Shown: one piece after another, positions 6,276 to 56,422 of the stretch
How positions within the stretch are numbered: the stretch's first letter is position 1
Layout: each line of letters begins with the position of its first letter
The notes under the pieces: generated by a model
Seen by the model: the letters and a program-made list of their open reading frames with translations, nothing else
What the model was told of the DNA's origin: nothing
The model's database searches: none
Made by a program: the position numbers and the translations under genes
DNA from: Puniceicoccaceae bacterium
GTDB taxonomy: Bacteria; Verrucomicrobiota; Verrucomicrobiia; Opitutales; Oceanipulchritudinaceae
Assembly: GCA_040830765.1 (NCBI GenBank)
Contig: JBFOMH010000019.1
Span: 64,001-128,000, forward strand
Length of the DNA stretch: 64,000 nucleotides
Direction of reading: 5' to 3'

Positions 6276-6680
6276 GTGACGCTACTGGAATGGTTCAAGG
6301 AACATGAAGCCCTGCTGGCTTGGAGCGGTGGCTTGGGATTCCTCATGTTTGTCGCTTCGATCGCCGCCATTCCCATTATCATCGCCTGGATGCCGGAAGA
6401 CTATTTCGTCCGCATCTCGCGGAAACCCTTCAAGCGCAAGCCGTTGCGGCAAGTCCTCCGTATTCTCAAAAACTTACTCGGCCTGACGCTCCTGCTGTGC
6501 GGACTCATCCTCCTGCTCCTCCCCGGACAGGGCATTCTCACCATCGTCATCGGAATCAGCCTCATTGACTTCCCGGGCAAGCACCAGCTCCAGTTGCGCC
6601 TCGTCCAGACCCCTAAAATCCGCCAGTCCATCCAGTGGATCCGCGCCAGGGTCCATCATAAGCCCCTCATCATCCCCTGA
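6276..6680 (+). CDS. Small membrane protein, PGPGW-like family
   Basis: Hydrophobic segments and LLLPGQGILTIVIGISLIDFPGK motif; GTG start. Confidence 0.7.
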   Translation: MTLLEWFKEHEALLAWSGGLGFLMFVASIAAIPIIIAWMPEDYFVRISRKPFKRKPLRQVLRILKNLLGLTLLLCGLILLLLPGQGILTIVIGISLIDFPGKHQLQLRLVQTPKIRQSIQWIRARVHHKPLIIP

Positions 6681-6783
6681 ATACTGACCGGTTCGGATGT
6701 AAAACCCACCCTGAGCTCGCCTCACAGGTTTCCAGAAGCTCTGTAATTCTAAAAACAGACAAGAAGACAAATAGCCCCTTTTG

Positions 6784-6835
6784 TGCGCTTTTTCAGTCTT
6801 CAAACAGATTTTTTCAATGACCTAACCAATTGCGA
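6784..6835 (+). promoter_or_regulatory. Regulon operator site A + -35-like TTG
   Basis: TGCGC-TTTTTCAG-N13-TTTTTCAATGAC-N8-TTGCGA upstream of ATG 6890. Confidence 0.75.
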
Positions 6836-6889
6836 CAAGGTGCATAACTGCCATAGCTTCATTTCTGAAACCTAAATCTCCACTAGAAC

Positions 6890-7765
6890 ATGAAGAAAAC
6901 CTACTTACTTATACTCCCTCTTATTCTCCCAGCCCTAACCTTTTCCCAACCGGTCCAGTTGTGGGAGTTCAACGACGCGGCGGGAACCATCCTTGAAGAA
7001 ACAGTGAATACCGGGACTCCCGGGTCGGCTGTCTGGAGCGCTGGATTCGGAGCCAGCACAACGAATGGAAGTGGCCTGTTCATCATCAATGATGCGGACG
7101 GCAATGCCTTCAAGACAGCCCCGATGGGAACCGGCGAGGGCATGTTGACCTATGAATTCATCATTCACTCATGGGACCTTGATGAACAGAATGATCCGGC
7201 AGCCCAATCCTTCCGCAATTTCGGGGTTCGACTTCGGGATAATGGTGCGGGCAGCAATGTTATGAATTTCCAGGTCCAACAGCAGGGAAATGGCAACCTG
7301 CGCTTTCGCATTTCCGACAACAACGGCATAACCAACCAGGTCGTTGGTGCTTATGACGGATTGCCGATGGTCAGCACAACTATTTACACGGTCCAGTTGA
7401 TGATTGATACGGCAACAGGTGCATGGACGCTTAATATCAATAATGATACGGCGATCGCGTCCGGCACGGCCATAGTCGGCAACCTAGACACGCTGAATTT
7501 CTATAAACAGGGTGCATACGGTGGTGGTTCCACCCCAGATTTTGTCGCCATTGAAGAGATTTCCCTGAGTGGGCCAGTGGCCAGTGTGACGTGGGCCGGC
7601 TACGATGTCGACGACCTGGGCTGGGCCAATACAACGCCGTGGCTCGGTTTCGTGAATGTCCTTGCTGATCCCTGGATCTGGTCGGCCAGCATCAACAACT
7701 GGATGTACATGCCGGAAGAAGGCGTGGGCGAAGGCGGCAGTTGGGCCTACGTTCTTGGCCAATAG
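6890..7765 (+). CDS. Secreted beta-rich protein with C-terminal Trp/Gly-rich domain
   Basis: Signal peptide MKKTYLLILPLILPALTFSQ; passenger resembles the 21938-22747 protein; C-terminal 56 aa match the 55436-56422 protein. Confidence 0.85.
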   Translation: MKKTYLLILPLILPALTFSQPVQLWEFNDAAGTILEETVNTGTPGSAVWSAGFGASTTNGSGLFIINDADGNAFKTAPMGTGEGMLTYEFIIHSWDLDEQNDPAAQSFRNFGVRLRDNGAGSNVMNFQVQQQGNGNLRFRISDNNGITNQVVGAYDGLPMVSTTIYTVQLMIDTATGAWTLNINNDTAIASGTAIVGNLDTLNFYKQGAYGGGSTPDFVAIEEISLSGPVASVTWAGYDVDDLGWANTTPWLGFVNVLADPWIWSASINNWMYMPEEGVGEGGSWAYVLGQ

Positions 7766-7810
7766 ACTTTTGTTTGGTTAGGGGTGGATTCCACCCTGGG
7801 TTTTTGGACT

Positions 7811-7842
7811 AGGCCCGCCCTTCATGGGGGCGGGCCTTTTTT
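7811..7842 (+). terminator. Rho-independent terminator
   Basis: AGGCCCGCCC-ttcatgg-GGGCGGGCCT-TTTTT between convergent genes. Confidence 0.85.
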
Positions 7843-7856
7843 CACCAAATGAGATT

Positions 7857-9707
7857 TCAGGTCCCCACCCGGTCGAGGGCGCGAGCCTCTGTCTCGCGGC
7901 GGAACTGCCGGGTATAGAGGGCGAAATAGTGCCCCTTGGCGGCGATAAGCTCTGAATGGGAGCCCATCTCGATAATTTTCCCCTTGTCGATGACGAGAAT
8001 CCGGTCGGCGGAGCGGATGGTGGAGAGCCGGTGGGCGATGACGAAACTGATCCGCCCGCGAAGAATGGTGTGGAGGCCCTTCTGGATGAGGGCTTCGGTC
8101 TCGGTATCGATGGAGGAAGTGGCCTCGTCCATGATGAATATCTGCGGATTGGCGAGGATCGCCCGGGCAAAGGAGACCAGCTGCTTCTGTCCGGTGGAGA
8201 GGCGGTTACCGCCCTCCCCGACCGAGGTATCGTATCCGTTTTCGAGCTTGGAGATGAACCCGTGGGCATTGACCATGCGGGCGGCCTGCTCGACTTCCTC
8301 CATGGAGGCGTTGAGGCGTCCGTAGCGGATATTCTCGAGCACGGTCCCGGCGAAGAGGTGCGGTGACTGCAGGACGATTCCCAGGTTGGACTGGTACCAT
8401 TCGAGGGAACGCTCACGGTATTCCACATCATCGATGAAGATGCCTCCCTTGGTGGGTTCATAGAACCGGGCCAGGAGGTTGACGATGGTGCTTTTACCGC
8501 CCCCGCTGGCCCCGACCAGGGCAATCGTTTCGCCCGGATTGACCGCGAGGCTGAAGCCTTCGAGGACCGGTTCGTTGTCCTCGTAACTGAAGGAGACATC
8601 GCGGAAATCAATCCGCTGGATTTGCGCCGGATAGCCATCCGGGGCCATGCCCGGACTGCCCTGGGCGTTGCTGTTGGCCTCTAGGCGCTTGAGGACATGT
8701 TCGCTGTCCGTAATCCCGGGTTCGGTGGCGAGAAGGCTGAGGACGCGCTCCCCAGCGGCCTGGGCACCCTGTAACTGGACAAGGATTGAGGCGATCTGGT
8801 TGATCGGCTCGAAGAATTGCCCGGCATAGAATATGAAGGCGATCAAGGTCCCGAGGGTCACCGCACCGGCAAGGTGGTCGACCCCGCCAATCCAGAGGAC
8901 GGTCCCGGCCGCGACACTCCCGATAGTCAGGACGATCGGCAGGTAGACGGCCGACTGGATGGCGTTGAGTACCGAATAGTCGTACATCTTGTCTGACAGG
9001 ACCTGGAATTCCTTCAGGTTGGCCTTTTCGCGGACAAAGGTCTTGGTGGTCTTCAATCCCTGGATGCCCTCACTGAAAGCCGCCGTGATGAAGGAGTTGT
9101 ACTTTCGGGTCTTGCGCGAGCTCAGGAGGAGCCGCTTCTGGAACCAGGAGCTGATAACGACCAGTGGTGGGACCACCCCGAGCACAATCAGGCCCAGTTT
9201 GAGATTGAGGACCAGCAGGATGACCGAGATGGCGAGGATGAGACTGGAGGCCCAGACAAGGTCAAGGAGGCTCCAGGCAATGACCCGTGAAAGCTTGTCG
9301 CAATCACTGGTCAGCCGGGAGATCAGCCAGCCGGTTGGGCGGTGGTCAAAGTAGGCAAACTCCAACTCCTGGATGCGGGTAAAGGTGGCCCGGCGAATAT
9401 CATGGCTCATGTGGTGACTGAGGCCACCCGCGAGATTGATGAAGGCCCAGACCCCGAAGGCGAGCAGGGCCGCGAGGCCCATGTAGGCGCCCACATAGGG
9501 CAACGGATTGAAGCCCTGTTCCATATTGGTGACATCGTCCACCGCCCAGCGGGTAACGAGCGCAAAACTGGCATCACAGACTGCGATCGCCACAGCGGCA
9601 ACCCCCAGCAGGATCATCATCCGCTTGTAGGGCATGGCATGTCGCAGCACCTGGCCCCAGAGCTTCAGGTCCAGCCGATCGTGAAAGGTTTCTTCTTCAA
9701 GATGCAT
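7857..9707 (-). CDS. ABC exporter, fused TMD-NBD subunit B (consensus ATP site)
   Basis: N-terminal TM domain, Walker A GASGGGKST, LSTGQKQ, IFIMDEATS, IAHRLSTI. Confidence 0.95.
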   Translation of the reverse strand: MHLEEETFHDRLDLKLWGQVLRHAMPYKRMMILLGVAAVAIAVCDASFALVTRWAVDDVTNMEQGFNPLPYVGAYMGLAALLAFGVWAFINLAGGLSHHMSHDIRRATFTRIQELEFAYFDHRPTGWLISRLTSDCDKLSRVIAWSLLDLVWASSLILAISVILLVLNLKLGLIVLGVVPPLVVISSWFQKRLLLSSRKTRKYNSFITAAFSEGIQGLKTTKTFVREKANLKEFQVLSDKMYDYSVLNAIQSAVYLPIVLTIGSVAAGTVLWIGGVDHLAGAVTLGTLIAFIFYAGQFFEPINQIASILVQLQGAQAAGERVLSLLATEPGITDSEHVLKRLEANSNAQGSPGMAPDGYPAQIQRIDFRDVSFSYEDNEPVLEGFSLAVNPGETIALVGASGGGKSTIVNLLARFYEPTKGGIFIDDVEYRERSLEWYQSNLGIVLQSPHLFAGTVLENIRYGRLNASMEEVEQAARMVNAHGFISKLENGYDTSVGEGGNRLSTGQKQLVSFARAILANPQIFIMDEATSSIDTETEALIQKGLHTILRGRISFVIAHRLSTIRSADRILVIDKGKIIEMGSHSELIAAKGHYFALYTRQFRRETEARALDRVGT

Positions 9708-16459: not shown

Positions 16460-17440
16460 ATGGATAACGGCGAATTCACCCTGGAGTTTGAGAAACCGCT
16501 GCGCGACCTGCAGCTGCGCCTGGAAGAGCTGATGACGGCCTCCGAGGAGCAGAATTTTGACGTTTCCGCAGAGACGGAAGCCATACGCAAACGGCTTGAG
16601 GAGACCAAGCGGGACATTTACACGCACCTCACCCCATGGCAGCGGGTCCAGCTGGCGCGGCACCCGAAGCGGCCCTATTCGCTCGACTACATCAATGCCA
16701 TCTTCACGGGTTTCCAGGAATTGCACGGCGATCGGAGCTATGGCGACGATCAGGCACTCATCGGGGGAACCGCCTTCTTTGACGGCCAGCCTGTCATGAT
16801 CATCGCTCAACAGAAGGGCCGTGACGTGAAGGACAACCTCCGCCGCAACTTTGGCATGCCACATCCGGAAGGATATCGCAAGGCCCTGCGCCTGATGCAG
16901 ATGGCCGAAAAATTCAACCTGCCGATCATCACTTTCATCGACACCAAGGCGGCCTATGCCGGAGTCGGCTCGGAGGAGCGCCACGTTTCCGAGGCCATTG
17001 CCCGCAATCTGCGCGAAATGGCCAATCTCAAGGTGCCCATCATCGGGATTATCATCGGTGAAGGGGGCAGCGGCGGCGCCCTCGGGATTGCCGTGGTCGA
17101 CAAATTGCTCGTTCAGCAGCACGCCTATTACTCGGTCATCCCCCCGGAAGGCTGCGCTGCCATCCTCTGGCGCGACCGGAAATATGCTGAGACGGCGGCC
17201 AACGCCCTCAAGCTGGGGGCCAAGGAGTTGCTTGAACAAGGTATCGCTGACGAGGTGGTAGAGGAACCCTTGGGGGGAGCCCACAGGGATCCGGAAATGG
17301 CTTCTGAAGCCCTCCGAAAAGCGATCACCAAGAACCTTTCCAAGCTGAAGCGTCTCAAGACCGAGACCCTCCTCGACAAGCGCTACGAGAAGTACCGCAA
17401 CATGGGCGACTTTATCGATCCGGCGGCAACTGAGGCCTAA
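16460..17440 (+). CDS. accA: Acetyl-CoA carboxylase carboxyltransferase alpha subunit
   Basis: LEFEKP, WQRVQLARHPKRP, ELHGDR, RNFGMPHPEGYRKALR, IGEGGSGGALG, YSVIPPEGCAAILW. Confidence 0.97.
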   Translation: MDNGEFTLEFEKPLRDLQLRLEELMTASEEQNFDVSAETEAIRKRLEETKRDIYTHLTPWQRVQLARHPKRPYSLDYINAIFTGFQELHGDRSYGDDQALIGGTAFFDGQPVMIIAQQKGRDVKDNLRRNFGMPHPEGYRKALRLMQMAEKFNLPIITFIDTKAAYAGVGSEERHVSEAIARNLREMANLKVPIIGIIIGEGGSGGALGIAVVDKLLVQQHAYYSVIPPEGCAAILWRDRKYAETAANALKLGAKELLEQGIADEVVEEPLGGAHRDPEMASEALRKAITKNLSKLKRLKTETLLDKRYEKYRNMGDFIDPAATEA

Positions 17441-20400
17441 TCCAGTTCCAGGAAGCGCCGCAGAAATACCCGCTCCGTGGCGGGCAATTGGAACGATTCG
17501 ACGCTCCAGTCAATCGTGCTGTCAATCGCTGAAACAGTCGTGCCGAGGGACTGAATTTCCGACCAAGCGGAAAGGTCCTCAGACCAGAAGTACCGGGGCC
17601 GGACACGCTCGGAGTCCCGTGTCTGATGGCCGAAAGCTATCCGCCACAAGCCTTCTGGGCTAAAGTCTTCCAGGACAACCGAATAAGGCGATATATCGGG
17701 CATTTCCGGATTGGTATTTTCCCAGAACTCATGCACGTTGGTACGGCCGTCAAAGTCGGTATCCGCCTGTGGCAAGGCGGCCAAGCCGGTGAGGGATGTT
17801 GCTGCCAACCAGGTATCAAGTGGGCTTAATGTGACCGTGAGGCTGAGGCTGATGTCGAGACTGGCACCGAGGGGATCCGCCACCTGCAATTCCAGCAGGT
17901 CGGTTCCGTCATCCTCTCCCCCCGGGGTTCCCTGCAAGCGGCCGTCCTTGAAAATCACCAGCCAATCCGGTCCGGATATCTTTCTGAAAATAAGCGGATC
18001 GGCATCCGGATCGGTAAAGTGACTTGAGAGATCCGCCTCCATGGGAACATTCGTTGATGCCGAGAGGGTTGCTGGTGGCGGACTAACTTCCTCCGGTGCA
18101 CGGTTAAGCGGGCCCTTGGCCACCCGCAGAAAGGATTCATTTGGTGAACCCCTCGCGGTAATGTCGGCCCGGGAGTTGGTGGTCTCGGTGATTGCAAAAC
18201 TGTAGGTGCCGTTACCGGTAATGTGGCTACTGACATCCGCCACTGCCCATTCACCGGAGGTGGCCGTGACACTGGCCAAAAGCGAACCGATGACCGGAGC
18301 CGTGTTCCAGGTCAGCGTGCCTTCACTCCATGCATTTTCGACTGCATGGATTTCAAAGGTTCCGTTGTATCCGAGGCTTTCCACGTAAAGGTGCAATTGG
18401 GCACTGTCCGGCGGTTCGGAAAGGTCAGTGACGGAATATTTGAAAAACGCATATCGCCCAAAGTCGGATGTATCGGGGTCCCGCACTTGGACTGGGTTGC
18501 GGCTGCCATAGTTGGTATCTGGATTCTGTTCGTTGATGAAGGTGTCCCCGGTGGCAGTGAACTCAGACACACCGCCCCCCGAACCCATCTTGCGAACCGC
18601 CAGCTCGGCCGTGGAGAAGGCAACAATACCATCAGCGTCTGTGACCGAAAGGCTGAGGGAAGCGGGCCCGAGATGGGATTCATCCGGTGTGCCGCTAAGC
18701 AGGCCCTGCGGGGACAGGGAAACCCATGCCGGACCGGAGAGCATGGCAAAGGTAACGGGTGGCTTTCCGCCTTCCCCTAGCCAGGTGCTTAGGTCATCCT
18801 TGTAAGCCAGTCCGGCATACCCATCCGCCAACTGGAGCAGATCTGTGGTAAAGCCAATGGTAGACCGGAACTGGAGGGAACCAAACTCCATGTAGCCCCT
18901 TTCCGTGGGCGAAACCCCGGTCAGGCCAACAAAATGTCCCCCGAGGTTCTCCCAGGTGAATTCGGCCAGGAGAAACGTGTTTGCCGCATCATTCGAGCCA
19001 AAGATCTTCAATTGATCGCCTGTGCGCTGGATGCGAAGAATAGCAACTGCCGCTGTCACTACCCCGTCCCACACAAAGCTATCCTCCAGGGCTGGCGAGC
19101 CTGCCTGTGACCGGTTGCGGATGCGCACGGTTCCCCCGGCATCCATCGTCACGGATAGGGACCGGGCGTAGGGGGTCAGTTGTTCACGCAGGTTGATGCC
19201 GGCCTCTCCCAGACCCATGACATCCTCCACGGAAACGGATATCGTGTAGTCATCATCCCGATACTGGGCTTGCAGCGGGAGGTTGTCCGATGCTCCGTCG
19301 GAGAGGCTGCCCCCGTTTATGGCCCAACCGAGAATTCCATCGAAGCGGTCAACCACGTAATCGGCATCAACATCGCCTACCGATCCCGGCAAAAGGCCGT
19401 ATCGGCTCCAATTCGGGAACCCAGGCTCGGGCTCAACTGTGAGGTTTAGTTCAGCGCTGTCAGTTTTGCCCGATTGGTCCCGCACAGTGTAAGTCAAGAC
19501 CTCCCCACCCAGCTTCCCGGGGATGGGTTTATAATGGATTCGGTTTCCAACGATAGTGACGGTTGCCAGGTTACTAGGGCCGACGGAATCAATAGCCAGG
19601 CCCTCCCCCTCATCATTGAGGAGAACATGAATGGAGCGCGTTTCGGATGCCCTCAGGCGGACGGTGTCGTCTGTAGCTTGCAGCGGCATCGGCCAATCGG
19701 CCCCCATGGTCGTGGCATTGACCGTGGACGCGGTTTTCCAGCCGCCCATGTTATGGGCAATAACAGAATAGCTGTACAAGCTGCTGCTCATGAGGCCGCG
19801 GTCACGGTAGCTAGTTGCATCGGGTGGCGTTACATGGATCTCCTTGAAGTAGGATTCACCCGGACCCTTCCGCATGATGATGAAGGCTGTTTCGTTGCTG
19901 GAATTGTCGGTCCAGGACAGATCGATAACGCTGCGGGCAATCGGGGTTGCGGAAACTGAACTGGGGGCAGACTGCGGTGCCAGGGGAATAGTCATGTAGC
20001 TCTCCAGGTTGCTCACTTCCGTCGACCAGTTGTTGGTTGACGGCGTCGGGACCTTCACTCCGGCATCATTTCGGATGCGGACATACTCGGTCAGCATCTC
20101 GTTGGCCAGCGTCGGCATGGAATCAAAGAGATCGGTTGTTTCCCCCGGATCGGCAACGAAATCATACAGCTCCGCAAAATGGCGATTGATATGGTAGGCC
20201 AGCTTGTAGCGGCCTTTCCGGTACGCGCCCATGGTTGTGCTGCCGGTGCCGTCGCTGATACCGGTAAAGTGATGCGCAGTTTCCGTCCGGGGGGCGAGCG
20301 CGCCATCGATCACCGCTGGCAGGAAGCTGATGGAATCGATGTGCTGGGAAGGCACCTCGGGGACACTGCCCATTTCCAAAAAGGTCCTGTAGAAGTCAGC

Positions 20401-21783
20401 ACCATGGACAAACGCCTCGGTTCTCATACCGGCCTGGGTCACACCGGGCCAGTAAACAATCAATGGAATGCGCAGCCCGCCGTCGTAGCACCAGGTCTTG
20501 CCAAGGCGGAAGGGAAAATTGCTGGTCGGGAATTGGTCCGGAGCGTTGTTCTTGTCCGCGTCAAAGGTGCTCTTTCCACCATGGTCCGAGCTGATGACGA
20601 TAATTGTCCTGTCGGCGATGCCCTGCAGTTCCAACTCTTCCCTTAGTCCGGCCAGGCTGTCATCATAGCTCTTCATCATCGCGGCATAGACAATGTTGTC
20701 CTGCCAAATGCGCACATCGGCCGTGTAGTCCTCAACCAGCTGGCTTCCACCCGGATGGTAGCTGAAATCGACATTGTCCCGCTTCTGGGTAAAGTAGCTA
20801 ACATCCGCCGGCTTGGCCTCCAGGGGTGTATGCACCGCGTAGTGGCTCAGGATCATGAAAAAGGGCTGGCCGGCATGGTTGGTCATATGATCGGAGATAA
20901 AGCCCCTTGCCTCGGAAGTCAGGCGATCGGTCAGGTACTCATCCGCATTGGCTGCAGGTCCGAGGTTGGGCAGATTGTAGGAAAGTGTTCCGGGATCCGG
21001 GAAGTAACTGTTGTTTGGAGCACCGTATTCTCCCGCGGCAATGCTGACATCATAGCCTTGGTGCTCCGGAGCCTTCCCTTCTGCTTGTGATCCAAGATGC
21101 CATTTGCCGATAAAGCAGGTCCGGTAGCCGCCGGCCTGCATAGCCTCTCCAACAGTAATCTCCGACGGATCGATCCCGCCCCCACTGCCAATGGCCTCCG
21201 GACGAAAATCATACATGCCAGTCTGCAACGAACGCCGCGCCACCACGCAGCGTGGTCCGGAAGCGTAGGCGTTGGTAAAGGTCACGGCCTGGCTAACAAG
21301 GGTGTCCAGAGCAGGGGTCTCATGGATCGTCGGGCCATCTGTCGCCTCTTCCCGCAGCGCCACGATGTCCTTGTAGCCCATGTCATCCGCCAGCAGGAAA
21401 ATGATGTTCATCGGCTCAGCCGCCTCGCCACTCACCGGGCCGGCCCAGGCGGATTCACCAGCCGCGTTGAAGGCCCGGACTCGGAACTCCGGCGAAACCC
21501 CACTGGTGTCCCCCGATACCAACAGCAGCTGCGTGTTCGGGCCCAGTTCAGCGATCTTGACCCAGCTGTTCCCCTCGTTGCGCTCTATCTCAAGGCCTGC
21601 CTCATCCGCTGCCCGATCTTCCCAACGGAGGAGCCAGGTTCCGGCTCCGGCAGGGGTGACAGTCATCTCCCGGGGACCAGCAGGTGTCCCCAAGGCAAGG
21701 ATTTCGGGAGCTGAAAATCCGCTACTGGCTGGAAGCGCTAAAAACAATGAAGCAAGAAGAGATATCGGACTATGCCATCTCAT
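17437..21783 (-). CDS. Large secreted multidomain sulfatase (FN3-like, S1 sulfatase, FN3, Ig-like, DNRLRE/CBM96-like module, C-terminal DxDxDG tail)
   Basis: Signal peptide from MRWHSP; NIIFLLADDMG, PRCVVARRSLQTG, GKWHLG, SDHGG; LSWTDNSSNE (FN3); DTFINEQNPDTNYG...WSEGTLTWNTAP; two GLLSGTP/GRLQGTP Ig repeats. Confidence 0.88.
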   Translation of the reverse strand: MRWHSPISLLASLFLALPASSGFSAPEILALGTPAGPREMTVTPAGAGTWLLRWEDRAADEAGLEIERNEGNSWVKIAELGPNTQLLLVSGDTSGVSPEFRVRAFNAAGESAWAGPVSGEAAEPMNIIFLLADDMGYKDIVALREEATDGPTIHETPALDTLVSQAVTFTNAYASGPRCVVARRSLQTGMYDFRPEAIGSGGGIDPSEITVGEAMQAGGYRTCFIGKWHLGSQAEGKAPEHQGYDVSIAAGEYGAPNNSYFPDPGTLSYNLPNLGPAANADEYLTDRLTSEARGFISDHMTNHAGQPFFMILSHYAVHTPLEAKPADVSYFTQKRDNVDFSYHPGGSQLVEDYTADVRIWQDNIVYAAMMKSYDDSLAGLREELELQGIADRTIIVISSDHGGKSTFDADKNNAPDQFPTSNFPFRLGKTWCYDGGLRIPLIVYWPGVTQAGMRTEAFVHGADFYRTFLEMGSVPEVPSQHIDSISFLPAVIDGALAPRTETAHHFTGISDGTGSTTMGAYRKGRYKLAYHINRHFAELYDFVADPGETTDLFDSMPTLANEMLTEYVRIRNDAGVKVPTPSTNNWSTEVSNLESYMTIPLAPQSAPSSVSATPIARSVIDLSWTDNSSNETAFIIMRKGPGESYFKEIHVTPPDATSYRDRGLMSSSLYSYSVIAHNMGGWKTASTVNATTMGADWPMPLQATDDTVRLRASETRSIHVLLNDEGEGLAIDSVGPSNLATVTIVGNRIHYKPIPGKLGGEVLTYTVRDQSGKTDSAELNLTVEPEPGFPNWSRYGLLPGSVGDVDADYVVDRFDGILGWAINGGSLSDGASDNLPLQAQYRDDDYTISVSVEDVMGLGEAGINLREQLTPYARSLSVTMDAGGTVRIRNRSQAGSPALEDSFVWDGVVTAAVAILRIQRTGDQLKIFGSNDAANTFLLAEFTWENLGGHFVGLTGVSPTERGYMEFGSLQFRSTIGFTTDLLQLADGYAGLAYKDDLSTWLGEGGKPPVTFAMLSGPAWVSLSPQGLLSGTPDESHLGPASLSLSVTDADGIVAFSTAELAVRKMGSGGGVSEFTATGDTFINEQNPDTNYGSRNPVQVRDPDTSDFGRYAFFKYSVTDLSEPPDSAQLHLYVESLGYNGTFEIHAVENAWSEGTLTWNTAPVIGSLLASVTATSGEWAVADVSSHITGNGTYSFAITETTNSRADITARGSPNESFLRVAKGPLNRAPEEVSPPPATLSASTNVPMEADLSSHFTDPDADPLIFRKISGPDWLVIFKDGRLQGTPGGEDDGTDLLELQVADPLGASLDISLSLTVTLSPLDTWLAATSLTGLAALPQADTDFDGRTNVHEFWENTNPEMPDISPYSVVLEDFSPEGLWRIAFGHQTRDSERVRPRYFWSEDLSAWSEIQSLGTTVSAIDSTIDWSVESFQLPATERVFLRRFLELD

Positions 21784-21818
21784 AACATCACCCACCATTC
21801 TTGCCGCAGAACCCCAAA

Positions 21819-21870
21819 AAACGAAGGAATAGAACAGTGAAATCCTGTCCGCAACCACTGAATTCTGTCC
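21819..21870 (-). promoter_or_regulatory. Regulon operator site B
   Basis: Minus strand GAATTCAG-N13-GATTTCACTGTT-N8-TCGTTT upstream of the large sulfatase (weaker match). Confidence 0.55.
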
Positions 21871-21879
21871 CCTGTTTCA

Positions 21880-21937: not shown

Positions 21938-22747
21938 TCAGCGACCAGTGCGGCGGTAGAAAACAAATCCCAAGGCCAGGAGACCAGTCAGGAAGGCAAA
22001 AGTGCCCGCCTCCGGAACCACAACACTCAATCCCATTTCGTCAACACTCACGGAATTCGCAGCACCCGCCCAGGCGCCGCTTTTGACATAAACCAGTTGC
22101 CCGATGTCAGTGCCGTTGAAATCCGAGAAGGAATGGGTTTCAACTCCATCCACGAGATAACGGACTGTATTGAGATCAAAATCAAACTCGACGGAAACTT
22201 CAACGGAAGTCGCACTGGCAAGACCCAGTGTGACGACCTCCCGGAACGCGCTTCCAGAATCAAGGGAAGTTGCTCCTCTCACCCGGACGACCGAGTCCGA
22301 TTGAACATTCCAGATAATCTGGGCAATTGAGTTGGAACCTCCAGAGTCATTGACAGCAAGCTTCCACGTATCTCCGACACTTGCCGCATCCATGTTCCAG
22401 GAGTTAAAATTCACGGAAAGGATGTATTTTCCAGTCGTTACTGGTGCATCGTAGATGTTGTTGTCATTGGCATCGTTCGGACCCAGCGCATCCGGAAGCT
22501 TGCGGGTGGTTGTGCCGCTATCGCCAGCAAGCACGAATAGTCCTGCACCATCGGCTATATCATTGAAGCTGGTTGTGTTGAAGTTCCAGCTGGAACCCCA
22601 GGAACCGGAGTTGGTGGCATCCCTCAAGCCCGCTCCGCTCGAATCTGAATCAAAGGTCCAATATTCGAGCGCGGTGATGATTTGGGCACTGAGCGCACCG
22701 GCTATCAGGCAGGCACTTAAGGTGGTAATCGCGGTTTTAATTTTCAT
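21938..22747 (-). CDS. PEP-CTERM-type surface protein
   Basis: Signal peptide MKIKTAITTLSACLIAGALSA; C-term VPEAGTFAFLTGLLALGFVFYRRTGR (PEP-like motif, TM helix, basic tail). Confidence 0.9.
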   Translation of the reverse strand: MKIKTAITTLSACLIAGALSAQIITALEYWTFDSDSSGAGLRDATNSGSWGSSWNFNTTSFNDIADGAGLFVLAGDSGTTTRKLPDALGPNDANDNNIYDAPVTTGKYILSVNFNSWNMDAASVGDTWKLAVNDSGGSNSIAQIIWNVQSDSVVRVRGATSLDSGSAFREVVTLGLASATSVEVSVEFDFDLNTVRYLVDGVETHSFSDFNGTDIGQLVYVKSGAWAGAANSVSVDEMGLSVVVPEAGTFAFLTGLLALGFVFYRRTGR

Positions 22748-22818
22748 GATAAGGAGGTGACTAGGTAGTTACTAAGCTGATGAGTGAATCTAAAAAGTAA
22801 CGCCCCGGGGCATGGAAT

Positions 22819-55435: not shown

Positions 55436-56422
55436 TTAACGAAGCACGTAGACCCATGCACCGCCTTCACCGGATTGCTCAGTGGAAATGTACATCCAAC
55501 TGGCAAAAGGCACAGAGTAAATCCACGGATCCTCGATGACATTGACCCAGCCCAGCCAACCGCCGGTATCTACATAGCCAGCGTCACCAACAGGATATCC
55601 CTTCCAGGTGTTGCCACCACTTCCGGCGACCTCAGCAATGGCAACCCCGGTTAAGCTACCCCGGTTCTTGCCCAGATTGGCTTCGTCAAATGTGAAGTCA
55701 TAGCTGCTCGCAAAGCTGGTGCCACTGGTCAGGGCACTGCAATTCAGGCGCACACCCGGAAGGTAGGCCGGAGGCTCAGCACCATCGTCAACATTTGACC
55801 AGTCAACGATCGCGGTGTTGGAAGTAATCGCTCCTTTTTGGGCACTGGCAGCTTCGATCACGGCGACGTCATCATACTCTGTATCCCATGTATAGCCGAG
55901 GCTGAGGGGAATGCTCTCGTCACCACTCCATTCAACGGCATCCGCATCCAGGAAAACCAGCTCGCCGCTGTCTGCACGGACTATGTAGAGCATGGCTCCA
56001 CATGTGTTGTTGGCAGAGGCGGTGGCGGTAAAGTCGTAAGTTCCTCCCGTTGGAATCTCCGCATAGCCAACCCAACTGGTGGGATTGGGATCGGTACCTC
56101 CAAGCAAGGTTCCCGCGTCCAAGGCAGTGAAAACAATCTCAGTCACGACGGTGCCATAATCTGTGATGTTATTGTCTACATCAACGACAACGGTACCGGC
56201 GACCGATGCACCGAATGACATTGTCATGACAGAAAGCTTCTTGTTGGTGGCGACCGACCAGACGACCATGTCGCCGGCCTGTACCTCAACCGAAGGTATG
56301 ACTTGGCCCGGGGCAGGTGAGCTGAGGCCCAGGCGATCATAAGCGGTAATGGAAACAGCCGCACTCAAGGATCCGCAAAGGGAAGCCAAGAGTACCGCGG
56401 TAAGTGCATTCTTGTATTTCAT
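55436..56422 (-). CDS. Secreted protein with C-terminal Trp/Gly-rich domain
   Basis: Signal peptide MKYKNALTAVLLASLCGSLSA; linker GSGGN; tail TWKGYPV...WLGWVNV..DPWIYS...WMY...GEGGAWVYVLR. Confidence 0.85.
   Translation of the reverse strand: MKYKNALTAVLLASLCGSLSAAVSITAYDRLGLSSPAPGQVIPSVEVQAGDMVVWSVATNKKLSVMTMSFGASVAGTVVVDVDNNITDYGTVVTEIVFTALDAGTLLGGTDPNPTSWVGYAEIPTGGTYDFTATASANNTCGAMLYIVRADSGELVFLDADAVEWSGDESIPLSLGYTWDTEYDDVAVIEAASAQKGAITSNTAIVDWSNVDDGAEPPAYLPGVRLNCSALTSGTSFASSYDFTFDEANLGKNRGSLTGVAIAEVAGSGGNTWKGYPVGDAGYVDTGGWLGWVNVIEDPWIYSVPFASWMYISTEQSGEGGAWVYVLR

Follow-up and report, generated by a model that had tools for sequence, protein, structure and literature searches.

A real and uncatalogued family of tryptophan- and tyrosine-rich acidic modules was found in the genome of a Puniceicoccaceae bacterium (Verrucomicrobiota, order Opitutales; assembly GCA_040830765.1), where it sits mostly at the ends of unrelated proteins with predicted export signals and likely has an anchoring role, the mechanism of which we infer below. 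The family was recognised from two proteins, A and B, encoded in a window of 64,000 nucleotides (contig JBFOMH010000019.1, positions 64,001 to 128,000; Table 1), whose tails an earlier note had proposed as a new C-terminal sorting or anchoring domain. Residues 234-289 of A (nt 7589-7756) and 272-327 of B (nt 55442-55609) aligned without gaps and were identical at 31 of 56 positions, as the earlier note had counted, and both open reading frames (ORFs) and tails lay where it had placed them. Over 10,000 shuffles of one tail, identities averaged 4.4 and never exceeded 13. The passengers showed no BLASTP match to each other at E up to 10, which agrees with the dissimilarity claimed for them; no paralog of either was found in the genome, and neither protein matched a Pfam or NCBIfam family above cut-off. 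Both proteins start with a basic-hydrophobic, signal-peptide-like stretch by a simple script and carry a short Gly/Ser/Pro linker before the module, consistent with the Sec signal peptides and linkers described earlier. Two close relatives of A (71-76% identity) retain the module, as do relatives of B at 74-77% identity, while those of B at 45-48% end in a longer aromatic tail.

Starting from the two tails, a hidden Markov model (HMM) was iterated over all ORFs in the six frames of the genome and settled on a short form of 56 aa carried by 55 of them; a separate profile search gave 61 matches. Weak matches in other families exposed a long form of ~94 aa, built of the same aromatic hairpin unit, and comparison of the two profiles gave a probability of 96.8% (E 2.8e-10, 38 columns). 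The long form added 33 ORFs, bringing the carriers to 88, so the many paralogs expected from such a search do exist, and a composition scan by eye showed ~8 more aromatic tails that both models had missed. The A/B tails are among the closest in the family, with only 14 of 1770 pairs more alike and a mean pair identity of 36%. Gly, Trp and Tyr are abundant in the short module (22% aromatics, mean net charge -5.1), which has conserved Trp/Tyr residues and the motifs D-T-G-x-[WF]-L-G-W and P-W. None of 58 copies reached a 19-residue hydropathy of 1.6 (maximum 1.26), in line with the transmembrane (TM) helix being absent as claimed.

The module had no sequence match in Pfam, NCBIfam, PHROGs or PDB, so the claim of novelty stands for every domain library searched, and no description of it turned up in the portions of the literature searched. 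AlphaFold predicted compact all-beta folds (pLDDT 94.8 for the short module of A, and 90.1) with short strands of 3-7 residues, and no clear structural match to these models was found. An identity with the OCRE domain (PF17780; RBM5/RBM10) was considered and dropped, as its scores were at background level, it is a eukaryotic nuclear domain and there was no sign of homology.

The position of the module was strongly, but not strictly, terminal. Among the 55 short carriers, 44 stop within 5 residues after a full module, 7 more stop within 45 residues (six of them with a detected half-repeat), and 4 have it N-terminal or internal; 29 of the 33 long carriers are terminal. In addition, 1044 database representatives (50% clustering) matched the short form, and in the best 150 of these, a set biased toward tandem copies, the module ended within 8 residues of the terminus in 136, within 50 in 4, and was internal in 10. 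With 8 of 88 carriers (4 short, 4 long) and 10 of those best 150 being N-terminal or internal, the expectation that the module would always be C-terminal failed. Tandem short modules were present in 6 of 55 carriers and an extra half-repeat in several. No conserved terminal residue was seen in the short module, the last residue being F or Y in 5 of 54 ORFs and W in none. Such position tolerance, together with tandem and half-repeats, is the behaviour of binding modules. Recent shuffling was also evident, as modules 69-75% identical (76-84% in DNA) are carried by a GH16 enzyme, an FGE-like protein and an unrelated one and cluster at 99/96 support. A 70-residue frame elsewhere in the genome (L011, G000:C5:68295-68507) consists of a well-conserved module alone, with no ATG; it is possibly a remnant, a frameshifted gene end or a shuffling intermediate.

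Predicted export was compared between carriers and other genes by a simple signal-peptide heuristic. It was positive in 73 of 88 carriers and in 641 of the 2545 other genes, so that carriers mostly have predicted signal peptides, as had been anticipated. For the short carriers the figure was 46 of 55, and the nine that failed include the 70-aa fragment and ORFs possibly starting at GTG or TTG. A lipobox-like motif was present in 1 of 88. The passengers, scanned in 52 and 34 carriers, include enzymes (GH16, GH88, GH95, GH10, pectate lyases, heparinase-like, sulfatase) as well as FGE-like, CAP, LRR_5, RCC1, HAF-repeat, DUF4465 and octaheme cytochrome c proteins; 24 of 52 had no Pfam match, and some carbohydrate-active enzyme (CAZyme) passengers already bear CBM6, CBM9 or CBM96. 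This variety is too great for one common substrate to be likely. One carrier (L026, G000:C17:118028-119677) is an octaheme tetrathionate-reductase-family cytochrome c (TIGR04315 over cut-off), which suggests an envelope-tethered redox protein.

The genome holds 22 PEP-CTERM-like ORFs and 3 exosortase matches, exosortase being searched in this genome only. The passengers of a module gene (C12:62474) and its PEP-CTERM neighbour (C12:63596) are 57% identical, three module genes on contig C34 are 59-64% identical to the PEP-CTERM gene C34:16525, and in these paralogs identity stops exactly where the tails begin. Exchange of this kind is known among sorting tails, according to the part of PMC3237569 consulted. 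Moreover, for 11 of 88 carriers there is a homolog whose tail is of a third type, also uncatalogued. This third tail, S-x-[DN]-L-x-x-W ... F-[FY]-R, closes 14 ORFs of the genome (L140-L153), has no Pfam match and occurs in 104 of the 251 genomes surveyed in the order; all three tail types are present in the window. A T9SS-like system with a C-terminal domain (T9SS, type IX secretion system) has been proposed in Akkermansia (PMC13524802), and the third tail may be that domain. No module carrier (0 of 88, and none of the best 150 database matches) bears a PEP-CTERM or third tail, and none of 23 N-terminal or internal module carriers inspected by eye ends in either. That the module swaps with sorting tails and never shares a protein with them suggests that it serves localisation rather than catalysis or substrate choice.

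Across genomes, the short form was present in 18 of 18 and 16 of 16 genomes of its own family in two samplings, and elsewhere in the order in 0 of 12 and 3 of 234; the larger survey (16/16, 3/234) scored at most 26 candidates per genome. The long form or superfamily occurred in 74 of the 251 genomes surveyed in the order, with most families either carrying it throughout or lacking it, and the long form in 10 of 301 genomes of a phylum-wide draw, two of them outside the order. Some genomes carry merely 1-3 copies. The distribution was independent of PEP-CTERM and the third tail across families: f23 had the module in 16 of 16 genomes and PEP-CTERM in 0 of 16, f22 showed the opposite (0 of 16 and 16 of 16), and f29 was likewise reversed relative to f23. 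The one named match outside the phylum is a phosphatase/phosphoesterase from a Syntrophobacteraceae metagenome-assembled genome (P0184) with a terminal long-form module, possibly a transfer beyond the phylum or a binning error.

Several known systems resemble the module in part. Like PEP-CTERM/exosortase (PF07589, TIGR02595; PF09721), it is a C-terminal suffix on many unrelated exported proteins with the same paralog junction. However, it lacks the motif-TM-basic architecture of PEP-CTERM tails (PMC3237569, as far as consulted), is acidic, folded and position-tolerant, and is not co-distributed with that system, f23 being module-only and f22 PEP-CTERM-only. Compared with PEP-CTERM, LPXTG and GlyGly-CTERM alike, it has no C-terminal TM helix, signature motif, terminal basic cluster or strict C-terminal position. 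The C-terminal domain of the T9SS is a folded all-beta domain without a TM helix, found on dozens of unrelated Sec-exported proteins of Bacteroidota, and both this architecture and the kinds of cargo are similar, whereas the Trp module also occurs N-terminally, internally and in tandem. None of 58 short or 10 long members matched TIGR04183, PF18962 or TIGR04131 at E up to 1, in line with the earlier note, which had not recognised the tail as a T9SS domain; PorP (PF11751) and TIGR04183 had no match in the genome, though no control genome gave a match either. Choline- and glucan-binding repeats (PF01473; PspA, PspC, LytB) are short aromatic beta-hairpins that anchor proteins non-covalently from either terminus, and the module shares the aromatic hairpins and the use of both termini; its unit, in contrast, is 56-94 aa rather than ~20 aa, and its host is Gram-negative. 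Matches of this kind were sub-threshold, with one member each (7pl5, E 1.6; PspA, E 0.31; PspC, E 0.79), and no beta-hairpin solenoid was among the structural matches listed. PF01473 had no match in the genome at E up to 0.1 (control matched in 3 of 14), and LicD, for phosphocholine decoration, was found in 0 of 5 genomes, 3 of them module-positive (control matched in 1 of 14), leaving the choline-binding analogy unsupported. The module also differs from a trimeric autotransporter anchor or the beta-signal of the beta-barrel assembly machinery in its rarely aromatic last residue and its short predicted strands.

Taken together, we favour the reading that the module is a non-covalent envelope tether which stays uncut and binds one common envelope component, with a probability of roughly 0.55. 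The lack of a TM helix, the acidity, the compact fold, the tandem and half-repeats and the N-terminal or internal copies all favour non-covalent binding over a signal that is cleaved off in the manner of sortase substrates. A small aromatic and acidic domain, all-beta by prediction, has been shuffled onto many unrelated proteins with predicted Sec export. The passenger would cross the inner membrane by Sec and the module, judging from the models, would fold on its own; its conserved Trp/Tyr residues and two motifs likely form a binding face. The target may be a repeating envelope polymer, with outer-membrane polysaccharide or lipopolysaccharide glycan as a first guess, or an abundant envelope protein, and tandem copies would raise avidity. 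The module would then offer a choice of anchor beside PEP-CTERM. Lipid anchors hold surface proteins of Bacteroidota, and by analogy the module might keep enzymes and binding proteins near TonB-dependent transporters. Either the outer surface or the periplasm would be compatible with the predicted tether. Of the "sorting signal or surface anchor" first proposed, the anchor half fits the PEP-CTERM exchange and the predicted-exported passengers, while the sorting half is weakened by the N-terminal, internal and tandem copies, the compact fold and the failure to find a processing or export gene co-occurring with the module.

Some observations weigh against the tether. About 90% of copies lie at the very C-terminus, followed by no more than 0-5 residues, and so tight a placement would equally suit a recognition signal. 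Part of the tail exclusion is forced, since the module and the other tails are both terminal elements, and there are too few non-terminal cases to test it. The octaheme cytochrome and the cyclophilin- and thioredoxin-like passengers (by eye) could be periplasmic, which makes "surface" uncertain, and choline is an unlikely ligand given the negative PF01473 and LicD searches. Binding and location are both predicted, and ligand and partner are putative. As for the transporters, 8 of 88 carriers lay within 1.5 kb of one, compared with 23 of the 641 other genes with a predicted signal peptide (p = 0.04; the neighbours are not independent and the control set is crude). Counted from the other side, which speaks for the tether, 6 of 21 TonB-dependent transporter genes have a co-oriented module carrier within 200 bp and 2 of 21 a PEP-CTERM gene. 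The link is weak from the module's side, and "often" is true solely from that of the transporter.

In the next explanation in our ranking, the module is a folded tag, comparable to the T9SS domain, that an as yet undescribed machine for outer-membrane export or sorting in Opitutales would recognise, possibly via the type II system. Terminal placement would suit it, with 44 of the 55 short copies no more than 5 residues from the stop, 7 more within 45 mostly via a half-repeat, and 29 of 33 long ones terminal, as would tail exchange and exclusion, the patchy all-or-none distribution by family, the T9SS-like cargo, the system proposed for Akkermansia in PMC13524802 and three secretins in the genome. 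We nevertheless consider it rather unlikely, given that N-terminal, internal and tandem copies occur, some genomes have merely 1-3 copies, no terminal residue is conserved and secretins are also found in module-negative genomes. The co-occurring processing or export machinery anticipated earlier was not found either: among the 20 regions listed, most from low-copy genomes, no recurring neighbour gene was seen by eye. A bolder version, which we hold only tentatively, makes the module the address tag of an undescribed Opitutales display system, a beta-meander with a new fold that a putative receptor or translocon would recognise wherever it sits, and by which ~90 enzymes and transporter-associated binding proteins would be surface-displayed instead of through PEP-CTERM, lipoprotein anchors or T9SS.

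Less probable still is a new carbohydrate-binding module (CBM) through which proteins would attach to external substrates, for example the algal wall or the mucus of a host. The 22% aromatic residues, the many CAZyme passengers, the tandem copies and the placement at either terminus are what such a module would show. Against this, it is also found on multiheme cytochrome, LRR, RCC1 and CAP proteins, the CAZyme passengers target chemically different glycans and some have CBM6, CBM9 or CBM96 of their own, it takes the place of PEP-CTERM and no sorting tail ever comes after it, and no CBM model in Pfam matched it. A dockerin-like or self-associating unit assembling passengers on a scaffold or lattice ranks last and seems very improbable; dockerin models in Pfam and NCBIfam did not match the module. 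The envelope tether is thus favoured over the export tag, the CBM and the docking unit, in that order.

The main features of the window are collected in Table 1. The hairpin 3' of gene A belongs to a class of which 2 were found against 2.0 expected in shuffles.

Table 1 Features of the 64,000-nt window related to the module and the other tail types.
Feature	Position	Strand	Basis
Protein A, 291 aa: predicted Sec signal peptide, beta-rich passenger, linker, Trp-rich module	6890..7765	+	ORF
Signal peptide of A, predicted, ~residues 1-19	6890..6946	+	sequence, heuristic script; cleavage site by eye
Linker of A, short, Ser/Gly/Pro	7562..7588	+	sequence; linker composition across family
Trp/Tyr-rich acidic module of A, short form, 56 aa + 2 terminal residues	7589..7762	+	
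Terminator-like hairpin with T run, 3' of gene A	7811..7837	+	consensus match only
Third-tail gene	17437-21876	-	
PEP-CTERM protein adjoining third-tail gene	21938-22768	-	
Trp/Tyr-rich acidic module of B, short form, 56 aa + 1 terminal residue	55439..55609	-	
Protein B, 328 aa: predicted Sec signal peptide, passenger unrelated to A, linker, Trp-rich module	55436..56422	-	
Signal peptide of B, predicted, ~residues 1-21	56360..56422	-	judged by eye

A 1459-nt contig of an RNA library spans 6293-7751 with zero letter differences; it possibly comes from the same source as the window and is no proof of transcription. RNA libraries from one study that bear the label mollusc metagenome also contain positions 6300-8200 (shares 0.88 and 0.74); they are possibly the window's own source and hint at a host-associated habitat. 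Elsewhere in the genome, a co-oriented run (G000:C17:370012-375949, L136) consists of a GH16 with a short module, a long-module protein and an apparent TonB-dependent transporter; the latter is absent from the PF00593 list, and a comparable run exists in genome G005. In two f5 genomes (L130:7172-12250 and L131:7485-12484), a module protein is followed by two others, one exported and of ~920 aa, the other of ~375 aa with an end like that of an outer-membrane barrel.

Opitutales are polysaccharide degraders, as far as the part of PMC13274419 consulted describes them, and the placement of their enzymes at the envelope has so far been poorly described. An uncatalogued module on ~90 of roughly 2,700 genes is a marker for the exported set and assigns a likely location to many hypothetical proteins. 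If the export tag were true, the module would point to an unknown export machine. If the tether reading is true, Gram-negative bacteria would have in it a new family of anchors, one that no known structure clearly matches.
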